A DNA stretch of 64,000 nt from positions 24,263 to 88,262 of the IMG/VR virus record IMGVR_UViG_3300045988_009865; one strand, written 5' to 3'. This DNA comes from a virus. Lineage: Duplodnaviria > Heunggongvirae > Uroviricota > Caudoviricetes. The notes below the pieces were generated by a model. That model did not search any database and was not told where the DNA came from. It saw only the letters and a program-made list of their open reading frames with translations. This document shows, piece after piece, positions 4,980 to 50,017 of this stretch; position 1 is the stretch's first letter, and each line of letters opens with the position of its first letter. The position numbers were made by a program, and so were the translations under genes.

Positions 4980-6167
4980 ATGGCAGTAGGTGAAATTCAA
5001 ATTAGTGCCTTGCCTCAAGCAGCCTTACCAATTGACCTTAGTGATATCTTCCATCTTAAGCAGGGTATTGAGGATAAGAGATGTACTCTTGAGCAATTAC
5101 TTGCTCCACACTCAAGCCTAAAAAATAACCCTCATGGTGTTACTAAAACACAAATTGGTTTAGATAATGTTATTAATGCTCTTCAGTTAGTTGCTGCAAA
5201 TAACTTATCAGATATTGTTAATGTAGCTGAGGCAAGAGCAAATCTACAGATTATGTCTTCAGAAGAGGTTAATAACCTTGTCCAGCAACATATCAAGGAC
5301 AAGAGTAACCCACACAATACAACTAAGGCACAGGTTGGTTTAAGTAATGTTCAGAACTGGACAACATCTAACCTGTATAATGAAGATGCAGATAAGTATG
5401 CTACAGCAAGAGCAGTAAATAACTTGTACAAGGCTGTTCAGGCTTCTTATCCAGTAGGTACTATCCATCTTTCTATGAACTCTGCAAACCCTTCTACATA
5501 CTTAATTTGTGGAGGTACTTGGGAGTTAGTTTCAAAAGGTAGGGCATTGGTTGGTTATGACTCTGATACAAGGCCAGCAGGTTCTGTATTTGGTGCTTCA
5601 ACTGTCACTTTGTCAGTTAATAATATGCCTCAACACTCACACTCTGTGTCTCTCAGTGGTGGTGGTCACACTCATAATGCAACTGTTTCAATCTCAGCTT
5701 TTGACTATGGAACAAAGACTACCAACTCTTTTGACTATGGAACAAAGACCACTAACACAACTGGTAACCACAATCACGTTGGTAGTGGGTCAACAAGTGC
5801 TGCTGGTGCTCACAACCACAGATTGACTTATGAAGCAGGTGGTGGTCTGTCGGAAAGACCTGCAATGGTTTGGTCTACAAGGAATGACCAATCGTGGTAC
5901 TCAGCAGATGCTGTCTGCGAAGTCGCTGGTTCGCACACCCACTCTTTTAGCGTTACCACTAACACAACTGGTAACCACAATCACACAGTGGGTATTGGTG
6001 CTCATAGCCATACAGTTGGTATTGGTTCACATACACACAACGGTACTGTGACAGTTTCTTCTTCTGAGCATACACATAGTGGAAACACGAATAGTGTTGG
6101 TGGTGGACAAGCTTTCAACATTGAGCAGCCATCATTCGTACTGTATGTATGGCAGAGAACAGCTTAA
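4980..6167 (+). CDS. tail fibre protein with His-x-His repeat tip
   Basis: 395 aa; RBS aggag upstream; repeated GNHNH/SHTHS/GAHSH/GSHTH motifs; C-terminal end (VWQRTA) paralogous to next gene. Confidence 0.6.
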   Translation: MAVGEIQISALPQAALPIDLSDIFHLKQGIEDKRCTLEQLLAPHSSLKNNPHGVTKTQIGLDNVINALQLVAANNLSDIVNVAEARANLQIMSSEEVNNLVQQHIKDKSNPHNTTKAQVGLSNVQNWTTSNLYNEDADKYATARAVNNLYKAVQASYPVGTIHLSMNSANPSTYLICGGTWELVSKGRALVGYDSDTRPAGSVFGASTVTLSVNNMPQHSHSVSLSGGGHTHNATVSISAFDYGTKTTNSFDYGTKTTNTTGNHNHVGSGSTSAAGAHNHRLTYEAGGGLSERPAMVWSTRNDQSWYSADAVCEVAGSHTHSFSVTTNTTGNHNHTVGIGAHSHTVGIGSHTHNGTVTVSSSEHTHSGNTNSVGGGQAFNIEQPSFVLYVWQRTA

Positions 6168-24806: not shown

Positions 24807-25664
24807 ATGTCTAAAGTTGTTAAAATGAAAGCTCCGGTAGAGAAGTACAACGGTACTGAACGTCAAACTCTGCGTTACCTGCTGAAAGATGTCTGGTTTT
24901 ATTACCTGAATACTTCACCACGTCCGGGAAAAGGTAAATCTATCGATAAGAAATTCCCAGGCAAAGACTGTAACTACAGTGTTTCAATTCTGGCAGAAGA
25001 TGGTAACAAACTGTTTAAAGAGTTTACTAAGTCTAAGAAAAACCCAGAAGGTTGGGATAAAGTTACTACTGAAGCAGTTGATGCAGATGACTTCGAAGAG
25101 AAGTTTGGTTGCAAACCACCATTTGAAGCAGACACTTACTACATCTTGAAAGTAAGTCGTGCAGCAGCTTATAAGGATGGTGCTGTGTGGACAGCTAAAC
25201 AGTCATTCCCTGTAATGCTGATTGAAGAAGTAAACGGTAAGCGTGTAGCTGTTAAACAGCCGATGAAGAAAATCAAAGCTCAAGCATCTGACAAACATGA
25301 AGATGACAAGAACTATGATGTAATTCATCCAGATATTGCAGTTGGTAACGGTTCTTTTGGTAGTGTGATTCTTTCTACTCACTTCTACACTTTTGAGAAC
25401 AATGTTCTGACAAAACCTATTCAGGAACAGTTTATCATTGATACCCTTGTACCTTACACTGGTGGTAACGGTGCTAACGGCGAACCTGAACTGGATGAAG
25501 ATGAACTGGCTATGCTTGGTCTTGATGGTGTTGAAGATAATGGTGAAATCACTGAAGAAGACGCAACAGACCACAAACCTTCGAATAATTCTGATGATGG
25601 TGACGATGAAGACTTGCCAGACCCAGATGACGAAGAAGATGAAGACTTCGATACAGAAGACTAA
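24807..25664 (+). CDS. putative single-stranded DNA-binding protein
   Basis: 285 aa; extremely acidic C-terminal tail (DDGDDEDLPDPDDEEDEDFDTED) typical of phage SSBs; position after primase-helicase. Confidence 0.4.
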   Translation: MSKVVKMKAPVEKYNGTERQTLRYLLKDVWFYYLNTSPRPGKGKSIDKKFPGKDCNYSVSILAEDGNKLFKEFTKSKKNPEGWDKVTTEAVDADDFEEKFGCKPPFEADTYYILKVSRAAAYKDGAVWTAKQSFPVMLIEEVNGKRVAVKQPMKKIKAQASDKHEDDKNYDVIHPDIAVGNGSFGSVILSTHFYTFENNVLTKPIQEQFIIDTLVPYTGGNGANGEPELDEDELAMLGLDGVEDNGEITEEDATDHKPSNNSDDGDDEDLPDPDDEEDEDFDTED

Positions 25665-25682
25665 TCTCTAAAAGTTACTTTA

Positions 25683-25710
25683 AAGCCCTGTACTTAGTAT
25701 GGGGCTTTTT
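25683..25710 (+). terminator. possible intrinsic terminator
   Basis: aagccc ... gggctt stem with long loop then ttt. Confidence 0.35.
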
Positions 25711-25726
25711 CATATGGAGAGTCACA

Positions 25727-26773
25727 ATGGAGAAGTACACATTAAAAAAACTTCCCGATTCAGTTACACATGTCTTTATTGACTCTGATAGTATTGCCTA
25801 TAAAGGTGCTTGTGTAGTTGAGAAAGCAAAATATAAATATGTCAATAAACTCACAGCAGAAGAATCTGAACCATTTGATAATGCAAAAGATGCTGCAAGA
25901 TGGTTAGCAGACCAGAGAATCCTTGTAGAAGAGCTTGGCCTAGCATTTGATGAAGATGAATGGGACAGACAGACTTGGAAAGAAGCTAAGAGTGAAAAAG
26001 AAGCTATCATGGCTACTCAGCAGGTTCTTCAGGAATGGCTTAAGGTTGTTGGTAAAGAAAGAACTTGGGTAGGTTACTTAACAGAGAAGGGTGTACATAA
26101 ACATAAAGACGTTAAAGGTCTTGAGCACCAATATCAAGGTAACCGTAAAGATGCTGTCACACCAACACACTTAGTTGCTTGTCGTGAATATCTTTTATCC
26201 AGACCAGAGTTCAAACTCTTAAGGGGCGGCTTCGAAGCCGATTCAATTGTAATTGCTAAAGCTGAAAAGATGGGTAAGAAAGCTGCTCTTATGAGTATTG
26301 ACAAAGACCTTCGACAAGCTGAAGGGACTTATTGTATTGATATGACTTATGAAAAGTCACCACTAATTTTTATTGCTGATAATAACGTTGGTAATATCTG
26401 GGATTGTCCTATTAAATCAAAACCAAAAGCTGCAAAAACAGTTGGCGTAGGTTTTAAATTTTTGTGTTATCAGGCTGTTGCTGGAGATAATGCAGACAAC
26501 TACTTCGGCCTTAAAGGTGCTGGAAAAGTAGCTGTGATGAATGCTTTAGATGGTAAAGAGACTTATAAAGAATGTCTTGATGCTATCTATGAACTCTATG
26601 CTAAAAAAGACTCTTATACCTATGTGTCATGGGATGGACAGACTGTCACAAAGACACCATTAGAGTTAATGGAACAACATTTCTTCCTAGCTTATCAAGA
26701 GCGAAATAAATCAGATATTTTTTCATTTGAAAAGTATGGTTGGACTCCAAATGTTGACTCAGCAGACACTTAA
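25727..26773 (+). CDS. 5'-3' exonuclease / flap endonuclease (RNase H-like)
   Basis: 348 aa; SIDKDLRQ (GDKD..Q-type) motif and FGLKGAGKVAV H3TH-like motif. Confidence 0.55.
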   Translation: MEKYTLKKLPDSVTHVFIDSDSIAYKGACVVEKAKYKYVNKLTAEESEPFDNAKDAARWLADQRILVEELGLAFDEDEWDRQTWKEAKSEKEAIMATQQVLQEWLKVVGKERTWVGYLTEKGVHKHKDVKGLEHQYQGNRKDAVTPTHLVACREYLLSRPEFKLLRGGFEADSIVIAKAEKMGKKAALMSIDKDLRQAEGTYCIDMTYEKSPLIFIADNNVGNIWDCPIKSKPKAAKTVGVGFKFLCYQAVAGDNADNYFGLKGAGKVAVMNALDGKETYKECLDAIYELYAKKDSYTYVSWDGQTVTKTPLELMEQHFFLAYQERNKSDIFSFEKYGWTPNVDSADT

Positions 26774-27251
26774 AGAATATCTACACTATGACCCCGAAAC
26801 AGGGGTCTTTACGTGGATAAAGAAATCAGCTAACAGAACAGTTATAGGCTCCATTGCAGGTACACCACATAAGCGAGGTTATATTAGGATAAAAATTAAA
26901 AGAAAATTCTATATGGCTCATGATTTAGCAATCCTGTACACAGACGGTTTCCTACCTAACAGAGTAGACCATCGCAACGGTATTACGAATGATAATCGTA
27001 GATTAAATCTAAGGGTTTGCACACAAGCTGAAAACTCTTGGAATAGAAGAACACACTCCAACAACACATCTGGAGTTAAGGGTGTATCTTTCTATAAGGC
27101 TAACCAAAAATGGAAGGCCAGAGTTATGGCACACGGGGTATCTCACTTTCTGGGGTATTTTGACAGTATTGAAGATGCCAAAGATGCAGTTACAAAGAAA
27201 AGAGAAGAACTACATAAAGAGTTTTCAAATCACGGAGAAGCTTATGAATGA
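26727..27251 (+). CDS. HNH homing endonuclease with AP2-like DNA-binding domain
   Basis: HRNGITNDNRRLNLR..TQAEN HNH motif followed by GVSFYKANQKWKARV...GYFDSIEDAKDA; start uncertain (overlaps upstream gene). Confidence 0.7.
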   Translation: MKSMVGLQMLTQQTLKEYLHYDPETGVFTWIKKSANRTVIGSIAGTPHKRGYIRIKIKRKFYMAHDLAILYTDGFLPNRVDHRNGITNDNRRLNLRVCTQAENSWNRRTHSNNTSGVKGVSFYKANQKWKARVMAHGVSHFLGYFDSIEDAKDAVTKKREELHKEFSNHGEAYE

Positions 27252-27745
27252 AGATTAAAGGATTTGGCAATTGTCCTACCTATGGTCATTGGGTATCTTT
27301 ATGTGGGGAAGTTGACCCCACTAAACATTTTGGTTTTGTCTATTTAGTATACTGTAAGAAAACCGGACAATATTATATTGGAAAGAAACAGCTTAATAGC
27401 GTGACCAAAAGAAAAGTTGCTGGCAAGACTCGGAAGAAGGTAGTCACTAAGGAGAGTGATTGGATGACTTATGAGACTTCTTCTGAGTATATTAAAAAAG
27501 ATATTGAGAGCTTTGGAAAAGAATTTTTTGACTTTTACATTATCCAAACCTACTACACAAAAGGTGGTCTAGTTTATGGTGAAGCAAACCTCCAACATAA
27601 ATTCGATGTAATGACAAAAAGGATTGACTCTAAGCTCAGACTCTTCTACAATGCCAACATTGCAGCAATTAAGTTTATCACTAAAGAAACTTATGAAGAT
27701 GCTGAAAAAAGAATCCATAAGGTAATGAAAGCAAACTGTGCTTGA
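27248..27745 (+). CDS. GIY-YIG-like endonuclease domain protein
   Basis: GFVYLVYCKKTGQYYIGKK matches a GIY-(10)-YIG motif. Confidence 0.45.
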   Translation: MKIKGFGNCPTYGHWVSLCGEVDPTKHFGFVYLVYCKKTGQYYIGKKQLNSVTKRKVAGKTRKKVVTKESDWMTYETSSEYIKKDIESFGKEFFDFYIIQTYYTKGGLVYGEANLQHKFDVMTKRIDSKLRLFYNANIAAIKFITKETYEDAEKRIHKVMKANCA

Positions 27746-27751
27746 TAACTA

Positions 27752-28015
27752 TTGAGAGAGAATAAAATGTTTAACAAAAGTAAAGCTGTGAGTCATGTAG
27801 CAAAGGTTGACAGCAAGATTGAAGAACTTGAGCGCATTCTTGCAAATGCCAGAGAGTCAATAATTAAAGAAGTTGAAGCTGTTGAATCTCAAATGCAGCA
27901 CCTAATGCTCAAACGTCAAGAGTTACGTGAGCATCTGGAATATATTGAAACACGAGAGCTAAAGGTTAACAGATATTTTAAGGAGTCCGAATGTTTAACT
28001 CAAGAGAATCAGTAA
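27752..28015 (+). CDS. hypothetical coiled-coil protein
   Basis: 87 aa. Confidence 0.35.
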   Translation: MRENKMFNKSKAVSHVAKVDSKIEELERILANARESIIKEVEAVESQMQHLMLKRQELREHLEYIETRELKVNRYFKESECLTQENQ

Positions 28016-28746
28016 AAAACTGGAATCTTCGTTGCGGAAACACCCAAAAGCAACCTTACAGTGATGAGTATTGGGAATCTTTGAAATCCCAGTCTCTGTG
28101 TATGCTTGAAGAAGCAAAAGAGCTTGTAAAAGCAATTGAAGAGAAAGACCCCATTGAGACACTGGATGCTCAGGCAGATTTGCAATATGTTCTTGACGGT
28201 CTAATTTATCTGTCACAACATGACCACAATGGCGCTATGGAAGCTGTTTGCCATAATAATGACCTGAAGTATACAGACGACTATGAAGAAGCTTTAAAAC
28301 GTCTTGCAGATGTTGAGAAGCGTACTGGTCAAGAGTGTGTTATCAGAATGTCAGTAGTTGATGGTAAAGAGTGGTATGCAATTGTTCGTGCAGCCGATGG
28401 GAAGATTATGAAGCAATCAAATCTCCCTAAAGTACAGCTTGGTGAATACATTGTAGAGCTTGAAAGCCAAGAACTTTTTGTGGTAGTATCTGAGACATGC
28501 GTTATCTGCAAAGGTATTGTAGGTAGCTTAAAGGATTTGGGTGTAGATGGTTTTGTAGAAGTTAATCCAATTACCTCTAAAGCAGATAAAGATTTCTGTA
28601 AAGAGAATGGACTATGGATTGCAGATATTGTCTACTACGATGGTGAGCAGTTCCATGTAACCTCATACCCGAAACTGAATTATGATGCTAATAACCTGAA
28701 GTGCTGGTTAAAAGGGGTTGGTTATAATGGATTCACAGAACATTAA
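27991..28746 (+). CDS. hypothetical protein
   Basis: 251 aa ORF. Confidence 0.4.
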   Translation: MFNSRESVKNWNLRCGNTQKQPYSDEYWESLKSQSLCMLEEAKELVKAIEEKDPIETLDAQADLQYVLDGLIYLSQHDHNGAMEAVCHNNDLKYTDDYEEALKRLADVEKRTGQECVIRMSVVDGKEWYAIVRAADGKIMKQSNLPKVQLGEYIVELESQELFVVVSETCVICKGIVGSLKDLGVDGFVEVNPITSKADKDFCKENGLWIADIVYYDGEQFHVTSYPKLNYDANNLKCWLKGVGYNGFTEH

Positions 28747-29050
28747 TAAAGAAGGTGTGGCTCAGAAGAGCCACTTCTCAAACTACAATATCTCTATGAC
28801 GGTGTTTATGTATGACCCGTTACTTGAGAAGTATGGTGAGACTCCAGATACACTTCTGGATAATGAACAAGTTTTAAAAGCAGTTCTGTACAAATACGGG
28901 ATTGATATTGAGAAAGAGTATTCTTTTGAAATCTGTCAACACAGGAATACTTTTGGTAAAGTTGTAATGGCTCCACTCTTCATGGGTGTAGAAAGAACTG
29001 ACTATGGTTGGTTATATCTAAAAAGAAACTTGGAGAAATACCGTGTCTAA
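28718..29050 (+). CDS. hypothetical protein
   Basis: 110 aa. Confidence 0.35.
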   Translation: MVIMDSQNINKEGVAQKSHFSNYNISMTVFMYDPLLEKYGETPDTLLDNEQVLKAVLYKYGIDIEKEYSFEICQHRNTFGKVVMAPLFMGVERTDYGWLYLKRNLEKYRV

Positions 29051-29381
29051 AGCAAAAAAGCTATCTTATGATGACATTATCTCAGGTGCTAAATTAGGTG
29101 TTGATAGTATCGGACAAGATGTTAAGCACGGAGACACAGTTATGTACTGTGATGACCGAAGAGGGAGAAGTGCAATCTTGTTTGGAAGAATTGTTTGCAA
29201 GATGCGAGGTAATTACGTTGTTGCAGACATGGATGTGAACGTTACACAAAAACTTGAAACACTTATGGATGATAATACATCATCATGGTTCTTCCTGAAT
29301 TGTATGCACACTTCTTCAGTCACAAAAGTAAGTGATAAGTTTTACGATATGTGGCAGAATGAGCAAATTTTCAAGATTTAA
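29043..29381 (+). CDS. hypothetical protein
   Basis: 112 aa. Confidence 0.35.
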   Translation: MSKAKKLSYDDIISGAKLGVDSIGQDVKHGDTVMYCDDRRGRSAILFGRIVCKMRGNYVVADMDVNVTQKLETLMDDNTSSWFFLNCMHTSSVTKVSDKFYDMWQNEQIFKI

Positions 29382-29387
29382 ACTAGG

Positions 29388-29410
29388 GAGCCTCTTCGGA
29401 GGCTCTTTTC
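29388..29410 (+). terminator. intrinsic terminator
   Basis: gagcctc-ttcg-gaggctc hairpin then tttt. Confidence 0.7.
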
Positions 29411-29427
29411 ACCTGTAGGATTTAAAA

Positions 29428-31662
29428 ATGATTAAGACAATTAAAAAATCAAACGGTACAGTAGTAAGCTTTGACCCAGAAAGACTGAATAAGTGGGCAT
29501 CATGGGCAGATAAGCGTGGTATTATTTGGTCAGAAGTCACTATGGAAGCCATGAAACGTGTCTATGAAGGTTGCACTACAAAAGAGATGCACCAAGCTAT
29601 GATTGATGTTTGTGTTGATAAACAAACTCAAGAGTACTCAGACATGGCTGGACGGCTACTTCTAGGGATTATCTACAAAGAAGCCTTTGGAGGCTTTACT
29701 AAGGTTCCTACGCTGGTTACCTTCGTTAAAAATATGGAGAGAGCAGGACTTTGGGAGAAGATGGACTATTCTCAGGAAGAGCTTGAATACCTGCAAGGAT
29801 ACATTGTGCACTCAAAAGATATCTCTTATGGTTATGCAGTCCTGAAACAGTTCAGAGACAAGTATGGTATCCGTGATATTAAAACGGGAAGACTTTTTGA
29901 GTCACCACAGTTTATGTTTATGGGTATGGCTATGAAAGCCTTTGAGAAGCAACCAAAGCACCGTAGACTGCAAGATGTTATCAAGCTATACACTTACCTA
30001 TCTGACCTTAAGATTAATGCTCCTACGCCTTATCTGAATGGTTTAAGAGCTACTAAATCAGGTTATGCGTCATGCTGTTTGATTAAAGCAAACGACACTG
30101 CTGAGTCACTTGGTATTGCTGCAAAGGTTGCTTATGATATGACCACAAAGCAAGCTGGTATTGGTATGCTGATGGAGACTCGCACTATTGGTGATGGTAT
30201 CCGTCAAAACACTATCGAACACATGGGTAAACTACCTTATTACAAGCTTGTACGTTCATCTGTAGAGGCAAACAAACAGAAGAGCCGTGGTGGTTCAGCT
30301 AACAACTTCTACACCGCTCTAGACCCGCAGATTGAAGATTTACTGCGTTTGAAGCACCCTACAACGGTTCCTTCGAAACGTATTAACGAGATGGACTACT
30401 CATTTGGTACAAATGATTATTTCTGGCAGTGTGTTCAATATGATACAGACTGGTTGCTATTCTCTTACAAGGATGCACCAAAGCTCTATGACATGTTCTA
30501 CACAGCATCTGCTGATGAGTTTGCTATGGCAGTTGGTCATGCAGTACATTCAGGTGTTAAGCACAGACGGGTGAAGGCTCGTGAAATTGCTAAACTGTTT
30601 ATCCAGCAGCGTTATGCAACAGGCCGTGTGTATCCATTCTTCACAAATAATGCAAACACACATACACCATTTAAAGAGCCTTTGAAGATGTCAAACCTTT
30701 GTATGGAAATTGTGTTGCCAGTGTACGGCTTTGAGAAAGAGACAGACCTTTACAGAGATGATGCTGTGAAAGAGGATGGTGAGGTAGCTCTTTGCTTCCT
30801 AGCTAGTTTGGTTGCAGGGAGAATTTCAGAAGATGAATACGCTGACGTTGCTTATTATGCTCTTGCAATGGTTGACTCCGTTATTGACCTTATGGATTAT
30901 CCGTATCCGTCAATGCGTAACCATGTTCAGAAGCGTCGTTCTGTTGGTATTGGCCTTACAAATGTGGCTCATTACCTTGCAAAAAACTACGTGAACTACT
31001 CTTCAAGAGCAGGTAAGACGAAGCTTCATGAGCTTGCTGAAATGCACTCTTACTACTTACACGAAGCTTCTTTAAGACTTGCTAAAGAACGTGGTGTACC
31101 TGAGTATATGAAGTTCACTAAGTATCCTGAAGGTTGGGTTCCTCCGAAGACAGCTAACAGGAAGATTGATGAGAAGCATGATGCAAAACTTCGTTATGAT
31201 TGGGATGACTTAGCACAACGTATTAAAGAAAATGGTGGAATCCGTAACTCTGTATTAGAAGCTTACATGCCTAATGAGAGTTCTTCACTGGCAACTAATA
31301 CGACAAATGGCTTGTATCCAATTCGTGACTTTATTTTAACTAAAAAGTCTGCAACTGGTAACGTGCTGTTTATTGTTCCAGATTATGAAGAGTTGAAGTA
31401 TGTCTATGAAATTGCTTGGGATATTGACACCTTTGACCTGATTGATTGTTATGCAATTGTTCAAAAGTTCACTGGTCAAGCTATCTCTTCAGATTTCTAT
31501 GTTGACTACGCAAAAGCTAAGAAGGTATCATTGGCTCAAGCTTTGAAGTACATGATTTATGCCAACTCAGTAGGTATGAAAACCATGTACTACCTTAACA
31601 GTCGCATTGGTGTAGGTAAATCTGCACTACAAGATGCTTATTGCGAGGGTTGTGGTGTTTAG
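29428..31662 (+). CDS. nrdA: ribonucleoside-diphosphate reductase alpha subunit
   Basis: 744 aa; N-terminal ATP-cone-like region; NLCMEI active-site motif. Confidence 0.9.
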   Translation: MIKTIKKSNGTVVSFDPERLNKWASWADKRGIIWSEVTMEAMKRVYEGCTTKEMHQAMIDVCVDKQTQEYSDMAGRLLLGIIYKEAFGGFTKVPTLVTFVKNMERAGLWEKMDYSQEELEYLQGYIVHSKDISYGYAVLKQFRDKYGIRDIKTGRLFESPQFMFMGMAMKAFEKQPKHRRLQDVIKLYTYLSDLKINAPTPYLNGLRATKSGYASCCLIKANDTAESLGIAAKVAYDMTTKQAGIGMLMETRTIGDGIRQNTIEHMGKLPYYKLVRSSVEANKQKSRGGSANNFYTALDPQIEDLLRLKHPTTVPSKRINEMDYSFGTNDYFWQCVQYDTDWLLFSYKDAPKLYDMFYTASADEFAMAVGHAVHSGVKHRRVKAREIAKLFIQQRYATGRVYPFFTNNANTHTPFKEPLKMSNLCMEIVLPVYGFEKETDLYRDDAVKEDGEVALCFLASLVAGRISEDEYADVAYYALAMVDSVIDLMDYPYPSMRNHVQKRRSVGIGLTNVAHYLAKNYVNYSSRAGKTKLHELAEMHSYYLHEASLRLAKERGVPEYMKFTKYPEGWVPPKTANRKIDEKHDAKLRYDWDDLAQRIKENGGIRNSVLEAYMPNESSSLATNTTNGLYPIRDFILTKKSATGNVLFIVPDYEELKYVYEIAWDIDTFDLIDCYAIVQKFTGQAISSDFYVDYAKAKKVSLAQALKYMIYANSVGMKTMYYLNSRIGVGKSALQDAYCEGCGV

Positions 31663-36034: not shown

Positions 36035-36426
36035 TTAAGTTGAGCAAAAAACAGTTAGAGTGGATTAAAGATTACGCCTCAGAGTGTGGCTCTTGCGAAA
36101 AGAATCACGTAAGATACTCAACATTCCATACAACCTTCACATTGTACATCAGTGACAACGTTCTAAGTGATTCCATAGAAGATGGTGTAGCGTTGCCTAA
36201 TGAATTGCTTGACAAATTAGCTGTAGTCACTGGAACTTGGTCTGAAGAAGACGGTCATGAATTATCTGACGATGTTGTCTTCTACAGTCTTGAAAATATT
36301 ATGAATCCAGAGTACATCATGCTAATGACTTGTGCACAAGACTGTGTTCCATTACAAAACTTCATTAAAGAGCACTGTGAGGAGTTTATTACTAAACAGG
36401 TTCCTTGTCAGGTAGTGTTTGAATGA
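36031..36426 (+). CDS. hypothetical protein
   Basis: 131 aa. Confidence 0.4.
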   Translation: MIKLSKKQLEWIKDYASECGSCEKNHVRYSTFHTTFTLYISDNVLSDSIEDGVALPNELLDKLAVVTGTWSEEDGHELSDDVVFYSLENIMNPEYIMLMTCAQDCVPLQNFIKEHCEEFITKQVPCQVVFE

Positions 36427-36461
36427 GTAAAACAATTAAATAATATTGGTGAGGTAACTAG

Positions 36462-36947
36462 ATGAATTACATGGAGATTCGACCATTTGACACAGCTAAT
36501 GGTGAAGGGGTTCGTGTAAGCCTCTTCGTAGCTGGTTGTAAACATCACTGTGAAGGCTGCTTTAACAGGGAGTCTTGGAAGTTTAATGCTGGTAAAGAGT
36601 TTACTTATGCAAACCTCTACGGCATCATTAAGTTAATGGATGATAAGGCCATTAGTGGGTTGTCAATACTTGGTGGAGAGCCTCTTGATGATAGAAACAT
36701 TCAAGAGGTCACCAACATATGTAAACGTATTAAAACTGTTTACCCAGAAAAATCTATCTGGCTCTGGACAGGTTTTCAGTTACACGAAAAAATCCACCTA
36801 GATGTGATGAAATATGTTGACGTGGTGATTGATGGTAAGTATGATTCATCTAAACCAACAGTTAAACCATATCGTGGTTCTGATAACCAAAACCTCTGGA
36901 GAAAAGAGTATGGGTGGCAAGGTGATTGTCAATGGCGAGCAGAGTGA
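36462..36947 (+). CDS. nrdG: anaerobic ribonucleotide reductase activating protein (radical SAM)
   Basis: 161 aa; CKHHCEGC radical-SAM cysteine cluster; follows nrdD. Confidence 0.85.
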   Translation: MNYMEIRPFDTANGEGVRVSLFVAGCKHHCEGCFNRESWKFNAGKEFTYANLYGIIKLMDDKAISGLSILGGEPLDDRNIQEVTNICKRIKTVYPEKSIWLWTGFQLHEKIHLDVMKYVDVVIDGKYDSSKPTVKPYRGSDNQNLWRKEYGWQGDCQWRAE

Positions 36948-36984
36948 ATCTCGTCGTAAAATTGGCTACGGGAAAGGTGAGATA

Positions 36985-37287
36985 ATGATTATCTCTTTTA
37001 ATAGTGCTTTATTAGGCACTTATAAGGTTAAGACCGAACTCCTTGATGAGTGGAAAAAGTATACAAACTCACTTTTCGGTAATGTTGGGATGGAAGCCTT
37101 AGCAGAGATTGAGAAGGCTGGAACATTCGAAGTTGTTGGTAAAGGCCACTTTACAATGTTCTACAAAACAAATTTAAACGTTGGTGACAGTGTTGTTGGT
37201 GTCACTGAAGAAGAACTCAAAACATTTTGTGAAAAGATTGAGAGAGATACTAAATGGGAATCTGGAATAGTTTTAAATCAAAAGTAA
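36985..37287 (+). CDS. hypothetical protein
   Basis: Start chosen at ATG 36985 (RBS aaggtga); ORF-track start 36829 would overlap nrdG. Confidence 0.35.
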   Translation: MIISFNSALLGTYKVKTELLDEWKKYTNSLFGNVGMEALAEIEKAGTFEVVGKGHFTMFYKTNLNVGDSVVGVTEEELKTFCEKIERDTKWESGIVLNQK

Positions 37288-37511
37288 AAGCAGCACTGGC
37301 ATCACTAGGTATGCTTACTGGTGTTGACGTGACTCATCTCATGCAGAACTTCAAGATGGATGAGAAACTAGCTAATGAGATTATGAAAAGCATCTATGTA
37401 GGTCGTGGCAAAGGTGGTAAAAAACAAGCACATCGACCAACTGGTGCAGCAGCAATTAAACGTGCAGCTAAGAAAGCTCGTAACCGTAAACGTAACAAGA
37501 AGGCTAAATAA
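37254..37511 (+). CDS. small protein with highly basic C-terminal tail
   Basis: 85 aa; C-terminus KGGKKQAHRPTGAAAIKRAAKKARNRKRNKKAK. Confidence 0.35.
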   Translation: MGIWNSFKSKVKAALASLGMLTGVDVTHLMQNFKMDEKLANEIMKSIYVGRGKGGKKQAHRPTGAAAIKRAAKKARNRKRNKKAK

Positions 37512-37513
37512 TC

Positions 37514-37834
37514 ATGAACAAAGTTTATAATACTCGTAAATTACAGATTTTCGTACTGTGCCAGTTTATGGCTAAAGAGTATAACTACTACTATTGTGGT
37601 ACAGGGTTCATTAGTGACAATGACGGCTCATATCTACCATTTAAAGAGGCTGTAAAACTCTTCAATGAAGAGAAAAGCTCTAAGAAAGATATTGAAAAGG
37701 TTAAGCTAACCTACAGCAAGAAAGATAAGAAGATTATCTGCCTAGATAACTTTGTAAAAGTTACTGGAGAAGCAAAAGAGTTTATGGATGAGAGTGAAAT
37801 CTCATTTACAAGCATCTTGAAAGTAGCTCAGTAA
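37514..37834 (+). CDS. hypothetical protein
   Basis: 106 aa. Confidence 0.35.
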   Translation: MNKVYNTRKLQIFVLCQFMAKEYNYYYCGTGFISDNDGSYLPFKEAVKLFNEEKSSKKDIEKVKLTYSKKDKKIICLDNFVKVTGEAKEFMDESEISFTSILKVAQ

Positions 37835-37847
37835 ACAGATACTATAA

Positions 37848-37875
37848 GGGGACTGTAAAGGTTCCCTTTTTATTT
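37848..37875 (+). terminator. intrinsic terminator
   Basis: ggggac-loop-gttccc hairpin then ttttt atttt. Confidence 0.5.
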
Positions 37876-37885
37876 TGGAGATAAT

Positions 37886-38401
37886 ATGTATCTGTCAAAT
37901 CTGAAACGTTCTGCTGCAATGTCTGTCCTAAGACTGAGCTTTGATGAACGTCAAGAGTTCATTGACTCCCACCAATACGACCCTTCTAACTCTAATCACA
38001 TGATTCTCTGGAATCGTGACAGTACTCGTGAAAGAGCACTATTCCGCTATTACCCATATTACACCATAGATAATCTGTATGAATGTTTTGTTGTGAAGAA
38101 CACCATTGTAGTGCTCAATAAGCTTTGTAGATACACAGGTAACCAGTCCTTCACATTAGGTCACCACAAGCCTGTTACAAAAGGTGGTGAACATCACTGT
38201 GCAAACTGGTTTATCCAGACTAAAGCTGATAATCAGAAGCAAGGAGATAACCTTCTAAGTACTCCTAAGATGACCTATGAAGAGCAAGAGAAATATATCA
38301 AAAATAATATGCCAGATGTGCTTGACAACAACTATACAGATTTGGCAATATCTCTCCTGTTGAAGTTTGAGACAGTTTATAGGGCAACTTACAATGGCTA
38401 A
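37886..38401 (+). CDS. HNH endonuclease-like protein
   Basis: 171 aa; LGHHKPVTKGGEHHCANW...N..KQGDN HNH-type motif. Confidence 0.45.
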   Translation: MYLSNLKRSAAMSVLRLSFDERQEFIDSHQYDPSNSNHMILWNRDSTRERALFRYYPYYTIDNLYECFVVKNTIVVLNKLCRYTGNQSFTLGHHKPVTKGGEHHCANWFIQTKADNQKQGDNLLSTPKMTYEEQEKYIKNNMPDVLDNNYTDLAISLLLKFETVYRATYNG

Positions 38402-38672
38402 AGCAGATTGGGAAATAAAAGACCTAATAAGTGATGCTGGAAATGGTTGTGAGATGTATATGATTCGTGGTCATGTACCAGACCCATTAGCTCTTGAGAT
38501 GATTGACCATCACACAAATGGATTCTACAAAGAACTAGGTGAACCAAATGTTGAACGCACTTGGACAAAACCAGTACCAGATAGCACAGGCAACTGTTCA
38601 GTCCTCTATCACATTGTGAATCCACAAAAATGCAAAACAGCTATGGCTGTGACATTCGTAACTTTTGATTGA
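38394..38672 (+). CDS. hypothetical protein
   Basis: Start refined to ATG 38394; 92 aa. Confidence 0.35.
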   Translation: MAKADWEIKDLISDAGNGCEMYMIRGHVPDPLALEMIDHHTNGFYKELGEPNVERTWTKPVPDSTGNCSVLYHIVNPQKCKTAMAVTFVTFD

Positions 38673-38684
38673 GAGAGAAAAACT

Positions 38685-39566
38685 ATGAAAACATCTATCC
38701 GTGTTATAATTCATTCACCGACAAAAGGGTCTCATGAAGAAGAGTTTAACATCATCCAGTTCCCTTCTGGTGAGATTGGTGGACACTTTTCACAAGAGCT
38801 TGTTGACTTTACTGCTCACGCAGCATCATCCATCAACAATGTGATTATGATTGTAAAAGGCTATGATAAAGACACATTGTTTGCTGTGGCACTTGCTAAA
38901 GAAGCAATTGATGATTTAGTTCCTCATGAATATGCCTTAAAGACTGTCATCTTTTACTACTTACCAAATGCACGATATGACCGTCACATGTTTAAAGGTG
39001 ATGCAGCAGCTTTGAAGGTTTTTGCTAAACAGGTTAATGCAATGGGGTTTGGTGCGGTCTGTGCAGTTGACCCTCACAGTTATGTGCCAGATAACCTGTT
39101 TAACTGCTTCCAAAGTATTCCTCAAAATGAAATTGCAGTCCACTATGCAAATGACCCACTGGTTGATTACTTAGTAGCCCCAGATGCAGGTGCTTCTAAG
39201 AAGATTGCAGAGTCTGCTAAAGAGGTGGATAAACCATATATCACAATGTCTAAAGTACGTAACCTTAAGACTGGTGAAATTACTGGTATGCGAATCCTTG
39301 ATGATGTTGATTTGACAGATAAAACTGTTATGATTCTGGATGATATCTGTGATGGTGGTCGAACCTTCATAGAAGCAGCTAAACATCTTCGTGAAGCAGG
39401 TGCAAAACGTGTAGAACTCTATGTAACACATGGTATCTTTTCTAAAGGTGTTGAAAACCTTCTTGACAATGGTATTGACCACATCTACACTACAAACTCT
39501 TTAGGAGAAGCTAAAGACCGTGGCTTAACACATTATGGTCAAGTTACTGTAGCAAACCTTGATTAA
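38685..39566 (+). CDS. ribose-phosphate pyrophosphokinase-like protein (PRPP synthetase family; candidate ADPR-PP synthetase)
   Basis: 293 aa; phosphoribosyl-binding loop MILDDICDGGRTF; adjacent to NAMPT-like gene. Confidence 0.75.
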   Translation: MKTSIRVIIHSPTKGSHEEEFNIIQFPSGEIGGHFSQELVDFTAHAASSINNVIMIVKGYDKDTLFAVALAKEAIDDLVPHEYALKTVIFYYLPNARYDRHMFKGDAAALKVFAKQVNAMGFGAVCAVDPHSYVPDNLFNCFQSIPQNEIAVHYANDPLVDYLVAPDAGASKKIAESAKEVDKPYITMSKVRNLKTGEITGMRILDDVDLTDKTVMILDDICDGGRTFIEAAKHLREAGAKRVELYVTHGIFSKGVENLLDNGIDHIYTTNSLGEAKDRGLTHYGQVTVANLD

Positions 39567-39575
39567 AACTTTATA

Positions 39576-39596
39576 GGGGCTTAAAAGCCCCATTTT
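39576..39596 (+). terminator. intrinsic terminator
   Basis: ggggctt-aa-aagcccc hairpin then atttt. Confidence 0.55.
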
Positions 39597-39611
39597 GAGA
39601 GAGATTAAAAG

Positions 39612-41393
39612 ATGACTAAATCACTTTATGCAGTCCCAGCAGGTTTAAAAGCAGATGCTTACAAATCTGGTCACATTTACCAGTACCCTAGTGCAACAGA
39701 ATACTTGATGTTCAACCTGACACCACGTAGTGATAAGTGGTTTAACAGCCCTTTAGCCATTGACGGTGTAGTGGCTTTTGGTATCCAACGTTTTGTTAAA
39801 GATTATTTAATAGACCACTGGAATGCCACCTTCTTTGAACGTGACAAAAAAGAAGCAATTGACGAAATCTTAGAAGTCATGAACGGTGTTCTGGGTAAAG
39901 ATGCTATTGGTCGAGAACATTGGGAAGCACTCCACGACTTAGGTTATCTACCGGTTGAAGTATACGCTGTAGAAGAAGGCACAGTTGTCCCTATGCGTGT
40001 ACCAATGATTGTCTTCCAGAACACTGTCTCAGGTTTCCATTGGGTAGCGGGGTATCTGGAAGATGCTTTCTCTGCTGAGATTTGGAAGGCTTGTACCATT
40101 GCAACTATTGCATTGCACTACAAACGTATTTGTAAGAAGTGGTCTGACCTTACTTGTGACAATGACTTACATTTGCCTTATCAGTGCCATGACTTTGCTA
40201 TGCGTGGTATGTCTGGCTTTACTGATGACGCATTTAATGCTGTAGGTCACTTAACCAGCTTTAAAGGGACTGATAGCTTCCCTGCTGTATACACGGCTAA
40301 ACGAATCTATGGACAGTCCTACCCAATCTCTGATATTGGTAGTTCTGTACCAGCCACTGAACACTCTGTAATGTGTGCAAACATTGCTTGGGAAGGTGGC
40401 AATGAGTTGATTGAAGAAGAAAGACGTTTTAAAGGTGAGTTACAAACCTTCCGTCGTTTCTTAACAGAAACTTACCCAACTGGTATTGCAAGTGTTGTTT
40501 CAGATACTTATAACTTCTGGAGAACTGTATCAGTTATATTACCAGAACTCCGTAAAGAGATTATGGAACGTGATGGCAAACTGGTAATTCGTCCTGACTC
40601 TGGAGACCCTGTACATATTGTCACAGGTTATAAAGCAATCCACTTAGAGTGTGCTAAAAAGGCTTATTACGAACACCTAAGCAAGCTGGAAGCCAGCGAC
40701 ACAATGTTGAATGCTGTTCTGAACATGAAGCTTGAAAACATCAACTATGGTATTGCTGGATGGCTACTGTCAGAAGGATACGAGATGGTTGTTGACAGAG
40801 AAGACTTTGAAGTTGCTGATACAGTGATGTTGAAAAACGCTTATATGGTTGGTTCTGCAAACGTTGTAACACGTCCTGTAGCAGAGATTGATGGGGCTAT
40901 TAAGACCTTGTATAACATCTTTGGAGGGACTATCAACTCTAAAGGTTTTAAGGTACTGGATGAACACATTGGCCTTATTTATGGTGACTCTATCACGTTG
41001 GAACGTGCAAACGAAATCCTGAAGCGTTTGTATGAAATGGGTTTTGCAAGCTCTAACGTAGTGTTTGGTGTGGGTTCTTACACTTACCAGTACATGACTC
41101 GTGATACCTTTGCATTTGCTGTCAAAGCAACTCTTGCAAGCATTGGTGGTAAAGAGATTATGCTTGCAAAAGACCCTAAAACAGATAGTGGTGTTAAGAA
41201 GTCTGCTTTTGGTGGTGTAGCACCTATGTGGGATGGTGATAATCTGAAAGCTGTAGATGGCTATGGATTCCAGAGCTTTGCAGATGTGCTAGAGCATCCA
41301 GCTTGCGCTTTACGTTTAGTCTTTAGCGACTCTGAGCAGTTCGGTTACACAACTCTTGGTGATATTCGAAATAATATTGACAAGCAGCTTTAA
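39612..41393 (+). CDS. nicotinamide phosphoribosyltransferase-family protein (NAMPT/NadV-like; candidate Namat)
   Basis: 593 aa; N-terminal DAYKSGHIYQYP matches the NAMPT DSYK..H..QYP signature. Confidence 0.75.
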   Translation: MTKSLYAVPAGLKADAYKSGHIYQYPSATEYLMFNLTPRSDKWFNSPLAIDGVVAFGIQRFVKDYLIDHWNATFFERDKKEAIDEILEVMNGVLGKDAIGREHWEALHDLGYLPVEVYAVEEGTVVPMRVPMIVFQNTVSGFHWVAGYLEDAFSAEIWKACTIATIALHYKRICKKWSDLTCDNDLHLPYQCHDFAMRGMSGFTDDAFNAVGHLTSFKGTDSFPAVYTAKRIYGQSYPISDIGSSVPATEHSVMCANIAWEGGNELIEEERRFKGELQTFRRFLTETYPTGIASVVSDTYNFWRTVSVILPELRKEIMERDGKLVIRPDSGDPVHIVTGYKAIHLECAKKAYYEHLSKLEASDTMLNAVLNMKLENINYGIAGWLLSEGYEMVVDREDFEVADTVMLKNAYMVGSANVVTRPVAEIDGAIKTLYNIFGGTINSKGFKVLDEHIGLIYGDSITLERANEILKRLYEMGFASSNVVFGVGSYTYQYMTRDTFAFAVKATLASIGGKEIMLAKDPKTDSGVKKSAFGGVAPMWDGDNLKAVDGYGFQSFADVLEHPACALRLVFSDSEQFGYTTLGDIRNNIDKQL

Positions 41394-49231: not shown

Positions 49232-50017
49232 ATGGGTATTGTAAAAATCATCAATGGGGATATCTTCTCCGCATTTGATAAAGGTAAGTTTGATATTATT
49301 GGTCACGGTTGCAACTGTATGAATTTAATGGGTGCAGGTATCGCTGACAAGATTTCTAAACTTTACCCAAAAGCATATGAGACTGATACAGAAGTCTATC
49401 TGTATGCAGGTGGTATAGGTCACAAACCCTGTGAAAATTTACTAGGCAATTTCTCTGTAGCACGTTTAGAACAAGGCCGTATAGCTAACCTTTACACTCA
49501 GCTTAAGACTGGTAAAGATGCCCGATACAGTGCTTTAGAGTCATCTTTGAAACAACTTAACAGATACTGTGAAGTCAATCAGTTGAAGAAAGTTGGGTTA
49601 CCTATGATTGGTGCAGGTATCGGTGGACTAGACTCTCAAGCCGTCACAGTCATCATTAATCAGGTGATGAAGAGTGTAGATGTGTATCTGTATGTCTATG
49701 AAGGAGAGATGTACCACAAGTTACGCTCAGGTTGGAAGAACTACTGTGAACCAGAATACTTTGCAGGTGTAGTAGTGTTCACTGATGATACAGTTACCCT
49801 CTTCAGACGAAGAAAAGGCAAGATACATCAAAGTAACCCTCCGGTTGAAAAGATGTCTCTAAGTAACGCTCTAGTTACCCACCTGTCGAAGAGCAATCAC
49901 AGGATTGCAGTAACATTTGGCAGTGATGCAGATACATATATCTATGCAAGAACTGATGAGGATGTTGAGGAAATTTTCTCTTCACCGGAAGTTACCTTCT
50001 TAGACGCAAAGAACTAA
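49232..50017 (+). CDS. macro-domain (ADP-ribose binding/processing) protein
   Basis: 261 aa; N-terminal IINGDIFSA...DIIGHGCNCMNLMGAGIA resembles the macrodomain GDI...N.AN...G.G.A signature. Confidence 0.5.
   Translation: MGIVKIINGDIFSAFDKGKFDIIGHGCNCMNLMGAGIADKISKLYPKAYETDTEVYLYAGGIGHKPCENLLGNFSVARLEQGRIANLYTQLKTGKDARYSALESSLKQLNRYCEVNQLKKVGLPMIGAGIGGLDSQAVTVIINQVMKSVDVYLYVYEGEMYHKLRSGWKNYCEPEYFAGVVVFTDDTVTLFRRRKGKIHQSNPPVEKMSLSNALVTHLSKSNHRIAVTFGSDADTYIYARTDEDVEEIFSSPEVTFLDAKN

Follow-up and report, generated by a model that had tools for sequence, protein, structure and literature searches.

The window, i.e. the whole stretch of 64,000 nucleotides (nt) analysed here, belongs to the genome of a Felix O1-like myophage of the genus Felixounavirus and carries three open reading frames (ORFs) with nuclease-like features on its plus strand, at 26727-27251, 27248-27745 and 37886-38401. 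Comparison with their relatives makes it very probable that these are three different kinds of gene, namely a mobile HNH-AP2 cassette, a fixed GIY-YIG gene and a resident HNH-like ORF. A first-pass annotation, made from the letters of the window, had given the same positions and had placed the first two ORFs between a 5'-3' exonuclease gene and downstream genes and the third between nrdG and a Prs-like gene, all of which was confirmed. Its proposal that all three are probably mobile insertions was borne out for the HNH-AP2 gene only and failed for the GIY-YIG gene and ORF 37886-38401 when relatives were compared gene by gene.

Felixounavirus comprises the Felix O1-like phages of the Ounavirinae, with hosts in Escherichia, Salmonella, Shigella and Citrobacter. 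The region 25000-29500 matched 258 phage records in GenBank, the best of them 95-97% identical and nearly all of them Felixounavirus, and a search with 36400-39700 returned the same record set; allele counts out of these 258 records include some GenBank/RefSeq duplicates. Two samples of loci were additionally compared, sample A with 27 independent IMG/VR loci retrieved via the exonuclease protein, and sample B with 27 loci retrieved via the Prs-like protein, covering the region of the third ORF. Coordinates of all features are collected in Table 1.

The HNH-AP2 cassette at the exonuclease/GIY-YIG junction

In alignments of occupied against empty genomes the cassette begins directly behind a conserved Trp codon, where the exonuclease and GIY-YIG genes meet, and the junction is identical in every case. 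The cassette brings a net gain of 491 bp, which moves the start of the GIY-YIG gene from locus position 5031 to 5522, and aligned with the cassette-free relative vB_EcoM_P54 it appears as a clean indel. The exonuclease tail reads ...WEPCMNED* in empty genomes and ...WTPNVDSADT* in the window; in the empty genomes this is a well-formed alternative C-terminus, and the exonuclease and GIY-YIG genes overlap there by 11 nt. Since the exonuclease is intact save for its replaced C-terminal tail, an intein, an intron and a split host gene were all rejected. The earlier statement that no gene is interrupted therefore stands for the body of the exonuclease and has to be corrected for its last few codons, which the cassette swaps. 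The vB_EcoM_P54 record itself is filed under Tequatrovirus, apparently as a mislabel or chimera (it is among PV390658.1, GU169904.1, MG065664.1 and MG065668.1), and the records 'Staphylococcus phage SA1' and two named 'Campylobacter phage' hold Felix O1-like sequence of 88-98% identity and likewise have a mislabelled or chimeric look.

Occupancy of this one precise site is polymorphic. Among the 27 IMG/VR loci, 16 are empty, with the exonuclease gene running directly into the GIY-YIG gene, and 11 are occupied, three of them by allele A (84-97% amino acid identity to the window) and eight by allele B (50-59% identical). About one third of the GenBank records (~86 of 258) are occupied, with 28 full-length copies of allele A, 18 of B1 and 40 of B2, the last being the allele carried by Felix O1 itself. 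The three allele families A, B1 and B2 are 50-59% identical to one another, and all open with the same MLTQQTLKEYLHYDPETGVFTW sequence. The same polymorphism is seen in a distant lineage (exonuclease 51% and GIY-YIG 56% identical to the window), in which L073 holds an HNH_3 gene 44% identical to ours after the same Trp codon, while L074 and L075 encode a GIY-YIG protein identical to that of L073 yet lack the cassette. Universal presence at identical positions, which the first-pass annotation had named as speaking against mobility, is thus not what is found for the HNH-AP2 gene: relatives have empty sites. Two of 13 occupied copies are degenerate, one frameshifted (phage D1-2; L003, 2192-2750) and one N-terminally truncated (phage Si3; L013, 5066-5521). 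These broken frames, like the one in the GIY-YIG gene of phage EC6, could be real decay or sequencing errors.

The divergence of the flanking sequence tracks occupancy. Over 26677-26744, the last stretch of the exonuclease gene ahead of the cassette, ten empty-site genomes are only 69-76% identical to the window, compared with 92-98% elsewhere in the exonuclease and GIY-YIG genes, whereas the cassette-bearing close relatives L004 (allele B1) and L005 (allele A) are 99% identical. The drop in identity is confined to this stretch. Occupancy varies among genomes that are 96-98% identical. All occupied genomes, whichever their allele family, share the codons for FFL, NK.D and WTP, where empty genomes have FW(I/V), NPKD and WEP. 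Genomes with allele B show longer diverged tracts on one side or the other of the cassette, and some flanks are recombinant, e.g. in L004 and in L024, an empty genome with an allele-B-like upstream tract. Such mosaics would fit recombination around a homing site.

The gene within the cassette was called by the ORF finder from TTG 26727 (a 174-aa ORF), and its GenBank relatives start at ATG 26736. The true start is likely ATG 26751, because this codon is conserved in all alleles at the site and is preceded by a Shine-Dalgarno-like GGTTGGA. Read from there, the gene overlaps the exonuclease stop codon (26771-26773) by 23 nt, and its own stop overlaps the GIY-YIG start by 4 nt (ATGA). The HNH half of the label given in the first pass is well founded, with Pfam HNH_3 (PF13392) at 31.1 bits (cutoff 24.8) and phrog_99 'HNH endonuclease' at E 2.9e-71, while the AP2 half stays below threshold (16.2 bits, cutoff 33.3). 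A profile built from ten alleles and paralogs matches the structure of I-HmuI (1u3e, E 2.2e-5) and, weakly but at the expected position, the plant AP2/ERF proteins TEM1 and WRI1 (E 0.036). Across these ten sequences D73, H74, N86, N95 and N98 of the catalytic region are invariant, as are G108-V-K-G-V112, G135 and A143 of the AP2-like region. Within allele A the ratio of non-synonymous to synonymous substitution rates (dN/dS) is 0.05-0.07; the enzyme is therefore under constraint. Near-identical genes (97-99.6% at nt level) are already annotated as 'HNH homing endonuclease' in GenBank, i.e. in garuso, heid and wV8 (gp113).

Taken together, site polymorphism, flank divergence, mosaic flanks and constraint mark the HNH-AP2 gene, by comparative criteria, as a free-standing homing endonuclease gene that is probably active or was so until recently. 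When occupied and empty phages infect one cell, the enzyme would bind via its AP2 domain and nick or cut the cassette-free allele in the last ~70 bp of the exonuclease gene, and recombinational repair from the cassette-bearing genome would copy the cassette together with the adjacent 3' end of the exonuclease gene. A carrier would be immune to its own enzyme because this last stretch differs by about 30%. Transcription and translation of the cassette would run together with those of the exonuclease and GIY-YIG genes, given the overlapping reading frames and the lack of any promoter-like site inside the cassette or directly ahead of it; in the promoter and terminator scan, sites were no more frequent than in shuffled sequence.

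Within the gene, a short hairpin (Table 1) falls into the stretch encoding LHYDPETGVFT. A regulatory role for it was not adopted, as it leaves the start codon uncovered and is barely more stable than shuffled sequences (fold z-score -2.1). HNH paralogs located elsewhere in other Felixounavirus genomes match the 36 nt encoding the same stretch (26781-26816) with 94-97% identity, and outside this segment these genes are too diverged for blastn; gene conversion among paralogs or a functional nucleic-acid element could explain this conservation.

Two resident nuclease-like genes

The GIY-YIG gene is a fixed, strongly constrained core gene and does not behave as a present-day insertion. All 27 IMG/VR loci contain it, one of them (L028, phage EC6, 5495-5993) with a split reading frame, and it matches 298 records, 270 of them over the full length, including every Felixounavirus-like record and Erwinia and Hafnia phages of the subfamily. 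Counts per organism are at least those of the backbone search (120/120 Escherichia, 23/23 Shigella). Its dN/dS of ~0.04 equals that of the exonuclease (0.03-0.04), with synonymous sites saturated. The position is conserved as well: the GIY-YIG start overlaps the end of the exonuclease gene in Erwinia phage phiEa21-4 too, and distant homologs of 46-56% identity lie directly 3' of the exonuclease gene in L071, L072 (a PIF1-helicase phage) and L073-75, lineages whose exonuclease is only 46-51% identical. In L076 and L077 (a DNA-polymerase-A phage) the gene instead overlaps the end of a non-homologous 276-aa protein, in which PD-(D/E)xK-like and C-terminal Cys motifs, seen by eye and without support from hidden Markov models (HMMs), suggest a nuclease.

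As a label, 'GIY-YIG-like' proved apt. Pfam SegE_GIY-YIG (PF19835) matches residues 21-138 of the 165-aa protein with the whole profile covered (E 2.3e-27, 96.1 bits), and in an alignment reaching down to 46% identity Y32, Y43, G45, E112 and N135 are invariant and R62 nearly so. A word-indexed homolog search retrieved relatives down to about 50% identity. The predicted model has a predicted local distance difference test (pLDDT) score of 70, and its best match among solved structures, a weak one, is the catalytic domain of I-TevI. Pfam finds no domain beyond PF19835, and the model shows one C-terminal helix after the core and no DNA-binding domain. Its universal, syntenic presence and the lack of a targeting domain set the gene apart from homing endonucleases on two counts, the catalytic one being kept. 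Among the PHROG families it matches phrog_7363 and phrog_314 ('homing endonuclease') and phrog_447 ('NAD synthetase'); the last name, used also in many GenBank records, is unsupported by any search and looks like a propagated misannotation. The exonuclease upstream is itself identified by phrog_107 'exonuclease' (E 4.9e-62) and a weak Pfam 5_3_exonuc match, and is annotated as such in relatives.

What the pair does may be approached by analogy. The closest one is the nicking of host DNA for nucleotide scavenging, as with T4 endonuclease II (DenA), a short GIY-YIG nickase of host DNA, and T7 gp3/gp6. On our preferred reading the GIY-YIG protein would be a domesticated catalytic domain, descended from a Seg-like endonuclease, that now partners the exonuclease in the DNA metabolism of the phage. 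Its most likely task would be to nick DNA for subsequent degradation by the exonuclease, feeding the neighbouring nucleotide module of MazG, ribonucleotide reductase and deoxynucleoside monophosphate kinase.

The third ORF (37886-38401), according to the comparison of relatives, is an ancestral, resident phage gene with an HNH-like metal-finger motif and not a mobile one. All 27 loci of sample B hold it complete and in an unchanged position, and 278 records match it, those of Erwinia phages among them; it is syntenic in Kolesnikvirus and has a dN/dS of 0.09-0.13. A few Felixounaviruses lack it. Of these, GE_vB_7A, NBSal004, FGS030 and JLBYU28 (L067-L070) share one junction, at which the first ~40 nt of the ORF run in frame into the last ~25 nt of the small gene that follows. 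The deletion, identical in all four, took out ~750 bp flanked by short similar sequences (GC.ATG.C.GT), and a fusion ORF of 20 codons is left behind. As the ~40-nt remnant is retained, these four genomes are deletions and not empty homing sites, and they could serve as natural knock-outs for phenotyping.

The protein matches phrog_3500 'unknown function' and, weakly (E 2.5e-4), HNH phrogs, and its family is tiny: the word-indexed search returned close relatives only, and an exhaustive profile search of 1.84 billion representative proteins yielded just 16 clusters. PF01844 is touched by only two of 14 family members (E 0.03), comparison of the family with the HNH-AP2 profile by hhalign found no relationship (probability 0.1), and in a phmmer search against the Protein Data Bank (PDB) nothing but protein A repeats came up, spurious matches due to low complexity, which we discarded. 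The motif H93-x2-P96-x3-G100G101-x5-N107-x8-N116 has classical HNH spacing, with H93, G100, G101 and N107 invariant in the family and P96 and N116 nearly so, and an AlphaFold2 (AF2) model with a pLDDT of 90.5 predicts two strands (89-93, 108-112) followed by a helix (113-119). Top Foldseek matches of this model in the PDB are mostly HNH nucleases, but at E >= 0.4. The designation 'HNH-type' is thus plausible from motif spacing and predicted fold, and no significant model confirms it.

Across the window, tblastn of the three ORF proteins found no paralogs, and among ten other mid-sized ORFs scanned with Pfam none was identified as an additional endonuclease gene. NCBIfam returned no match for any of the three ORFs.

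The surroundings of the third ORF (36950-37850 and 38394-39566) are strongly mosaic among genomes with near-identical nrdG. The genes concerned are a DUF7390 gene, ORFs at 36979-37511, the small ORF after the third ORF and the Prs-like gene, each of which occurs in two or more allele classes (about 50-78% versus 93-100% amino acid identity) in varied combinations. Further downstream, the 45-bp spacer between the Prs-like and Nampt-like genes is the empty site of a second HNH-AP2 paralog, ~40% identical to the gene at 26751, which occupies it in six of 27 relatives (L031, L034, L044, L045, L052 and L053). The 'HNH homing endonuclease' annotated near nrdG/prs in some GenBank records is therefore at least partly that gene and not ORF 37886-38401.

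Table 1 Features of the window discussed in the text (all positions in the window).
Feature	Position	Strand	Basis or remark
5'-3' exonuclease gene	25727..26773	+	phrog_107; HNH cassette lands at its 3' end
Last 68 bp of the exonuclease gene upstream of the cassette	26677..26744	+	haplotype tied to occupancy; putative recognition/immunity region
Inserted cassette	26744..27243	+	500 bp in place of 9 bp (GAGCCGTGT) present at empty sites
HNH_3-AP2 free-standing homing endonuclease gene (by comparative criteria)	26751..27251	+	166 aa from conserved ATG
Hairpin with 6-bp stem, GACCCC-GAAACA-GGGGTC	26790..26807	+	within conserved LHYDPETGVFT coding stretch
HNH_3 catalytic motif region (VDHRNG...NLR...AEN)	26910..27038	+	Pfam; residues 62-104 of the 174-aa ORF
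Putative AP2-like DNA-binding region (SGVKGV...W.A...LG.F....A)	27069..27188	+	sub-threshold Pfam AP2
GIY-YIG nuclease gene, SegE-type catalytic domain only, 165 aa, core gene	27248..27745	+	PF19835
Third ORF, 171 aa, small phage-only family with HNH-like (H-N-N) motif	37886..38401	+	phrog_3500
Predicted beta-beta-alpha unit with H93, P96, G100, G101, N107, N116	38150..38242	+	alignment and AF2 model
Small ORF, lost along with the HNH-like ORF in deletion variants	38394..38672	+	phrog_4726
Prs-like (Adps) gene	38685-39566	+	Pfam and PHROG matches
Spacer between Adps and Namat genes, 45 bp	39567-39611		empty site for second HNH-AP2 paralog
Nampt-like (Namat) gene	39612-41393	+	Pfam and PHROG matches

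Weighing alternative readings

Several points weigh against the division into one mobile and two resident genes. Besides the sub-threshold AP2 score, the putative cut site in the last ~70 bp of the exonuclease gene was placed there by flank divergence, and between L073 and L074 this flank has hardly diverged despite their difference in occupancy, so that immunity by divergence is not general. Allele A in Citrobacter phage Moogle is 78.7% identical to the window at nt level, which is about the divergence of the backbone, so that some of the distribution could reflect vertical inheritance combined with loss. The split GIY-YIG gene of EC6 may point to a dispensable gene or to a sequencing error, and the function proposed for the GIY-YIG protein is purely inferred. 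The third ORF, for its part, has no Pfam or NCBIfam match and no significant HMM or fold match.

The Moogle-like backbone, in which allele A is about as diverged as the backbone itself, also belongs to the view that the HNH-AP2 polymorphism stems from an ancestral gene repeatedly lost by deletion and not gained by homing. The occurrence of degenerate copies would agree with this, and L024, empty with its allele-B-like upstream flank, could be such a loss event. However, empty genomes have a well-formed exonuclease C-terminus and the 11-nt overlap described above, a direct overlapping exonuclease-to-GIY-YIG junction is also found in Kolesnikvirus and L074/L075, and the two genes are adjacent in L071, so the empty state looks ancestral. 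Moreover, the backbones carrying the three allele families are more than 93% identical, the families themselves only 50-59%, occupancy differs among genomes 96-98% identical, and the alignment of loci shows no cassette remnants at empty sites; we regard repeated loss as very unlikely. The opposite extreme, that all three genes are homing endonucleases and that the GIY-YIG gene and the third ORF are universal only since homing drove them to fixation, strikes us as highly improbable. In its favour, homing can be expected to end in fixation, the GIY-YIG domain shares its Pfam family with the homing endonuclease T4 SegE, its phrog_7363 and phrog_314 matches bear that name, and many GenBank records read 'GIY-YIG homing endonuclease'. 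A fixed selfish endonuclease should nevertheless decay, whereas dN/dS is 0.04 for the GIY-YIG gene and 0.09-0.13 for the third ORF, with synonymous sites saturated. In addition, the GIY-YIG gene keeps its place after the exonuclease across genera and distant lineages, the third ORF keeps its own across Ounavirinae genera, a 165-aa GIY-YIG protein has no room for the DNA-binding domain that gives Seg proteins and I-TevI their site specificity, and the genomes lacking the third ORF are deletion derivatives.

For the third ORF a different function has to be considered, given its neighbours. The Prs-like/Nampt-like pair (38685-41393) corresponds to the NARP1 pair for reconstitution of nicotinamide adenine dinucleotide (NAD+). 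Experiments on Bas63, a Felixounavirus, identified the two genes as NARP1, an anti-defence pathway whose enzymes Adps and Namat regenerate NAD+, the starting materials being ADP-ribose and nicotinamide (bioRxiv 10.1101/2024.02.11.579819). The third ORF would then be no DNA nuclease but an accessory of the NAD+ module, e.g. a His-Me-finger hydrolase acting on an ADP-ribose-derived molecule or otherwise supporting NARP1, which we consider unlikely. Across several phage lineages the family lies within about 0.3-2.5 kb of Prs-like and/or Nampt-family genes: gene order is the same in Felixounavirus, Kolesnikvirus, L061 and L080, a rearranged L081 has the homolog directly downstream of the pair, and three T4-like contigs (L060, L062 and L064) have it 1-2 kb downstream of a Nampt-family gene. 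NARP1 operons are, furthermore, known to recruit accessory enzymes such as the Macro-domain protein Adpp and RyDEP. Conversely, in L078 and L079 the homolog stands beside a UvrD helicase with no NAD genes within 4 kb, NARP1 of Bas63 was described as an operon of two genes, the motif conforms to the classical HNH motif of nucleases, and several of the linkage contexts share ancestry, leaving perhaps three independent lineages and guilt by association. This tiny, phage-only family could at best tentatively be taken for an uncharacterised NAD+ anti-defence accessory enzyme, e.g. a hydrolase feeding or protecting NARP1, and our preferred reading of the ORF is that of a resident gene with an HNH-like motif. 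About 8 kb from NARP1 and outside the operon, a 261-aa ORF (49232-50017) encodes a Macro domain (Pfam E 2.1e-7) and also matches, below threshold, the model of the ADP-ribosyl glycohydrolase DarG (NCBIfam E 8.8e-13, 48 bits, cutoff 250); its product is possibly an anti-defence enzyme for ADP-ribose processing, comparable to Adpp.

Significance and relation to known systems

It has been on record since 2010 that Felix O1-like phages possess several free-standing HNH genes, and near-identical ORFs are already annotated in GenBank. Six free-standing HNH genes were reported for Felix O1 (PMC3185647), their number varies in relatives (PMC8300805), and the larger genomes of the BASEL collection show homing-endonuclease infestation with gene conversion (PMC8594841). 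What our analysis adds is the separation of one mobile cassette from two resident nuclease-like genes, whose database labels are inconsistent ('GIY-YIG homing endonuclease', 'NAD synthetase', 'hypothetical'). This separation matters for phage phylogenetics and for the engineering of Felixounavirus biocontrol phages, because recombination has a hot spot at the exonuclease/GIY-YIG junction. A testable lead on phage DNA metabolism comes from the conserved pairing of exonuclease and GIY-YIG genes, and a testable anti-defence lead from the linkage of the HNH-like family to NAD+ reconstitution genes.

Among characterised enzymes, the third ORF product may resemble classical HNH/His-Me finger nucleases, namely the Cas9 HNH domain, the Gme HNH nicking endonuclease (4h9d) and McrA, in the H-x2-P-x3-GG-x5-N-x8-N spacing of its motif and its predicted beta-beta-alpha unit, and proteins of these types dominate its top Foldseek matches. 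The GIY-YIG protein shares with T4 SegE and I-TevI the whole PF19835 domain including the GIY, YIG, Arg, Glu and Asn residues. Unlike the Seg proteins and I-TevI it has no linker or DNA-binding domain, and its gene is universal, syntenic and under strong purifying selection, which fits a domesticated catalytic domain better than a homing endonuclease of the Seg/I-TevI type.

The HNH-AP2 protein has the HNH_3 catalytic motif of I-HmuI, its only significant relative of solved structure. I-HmuI is intron-encoded, whereas the HNH-AP2 gene of the window is free-standing and overlaps both neighbours, and its clade is known from sequence only. With the phage HNH-AP2 endonucleases of phrog_99 it would share a putative C-terminal AP2-like region (sub-threshold here), besides the free-standing, intergenic location and the presence/absence polymorphism. 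Intronless homing of free-standing endonuclease genes in T-even phages has reportedly been treated by Edgell, Gibb and Belfort in 2010 (cited in PMC8300805). Unlike the T-even case, that of the window is built on sequence comparison alone, with the cleavage site and co-conversion inferred, yet it shows the same features: a cassette between conserved genes, divergence of the adjacent conserved gene in step with occupancy, mosaic flanks that hint at co-conversion, and some copies that are degenerate.

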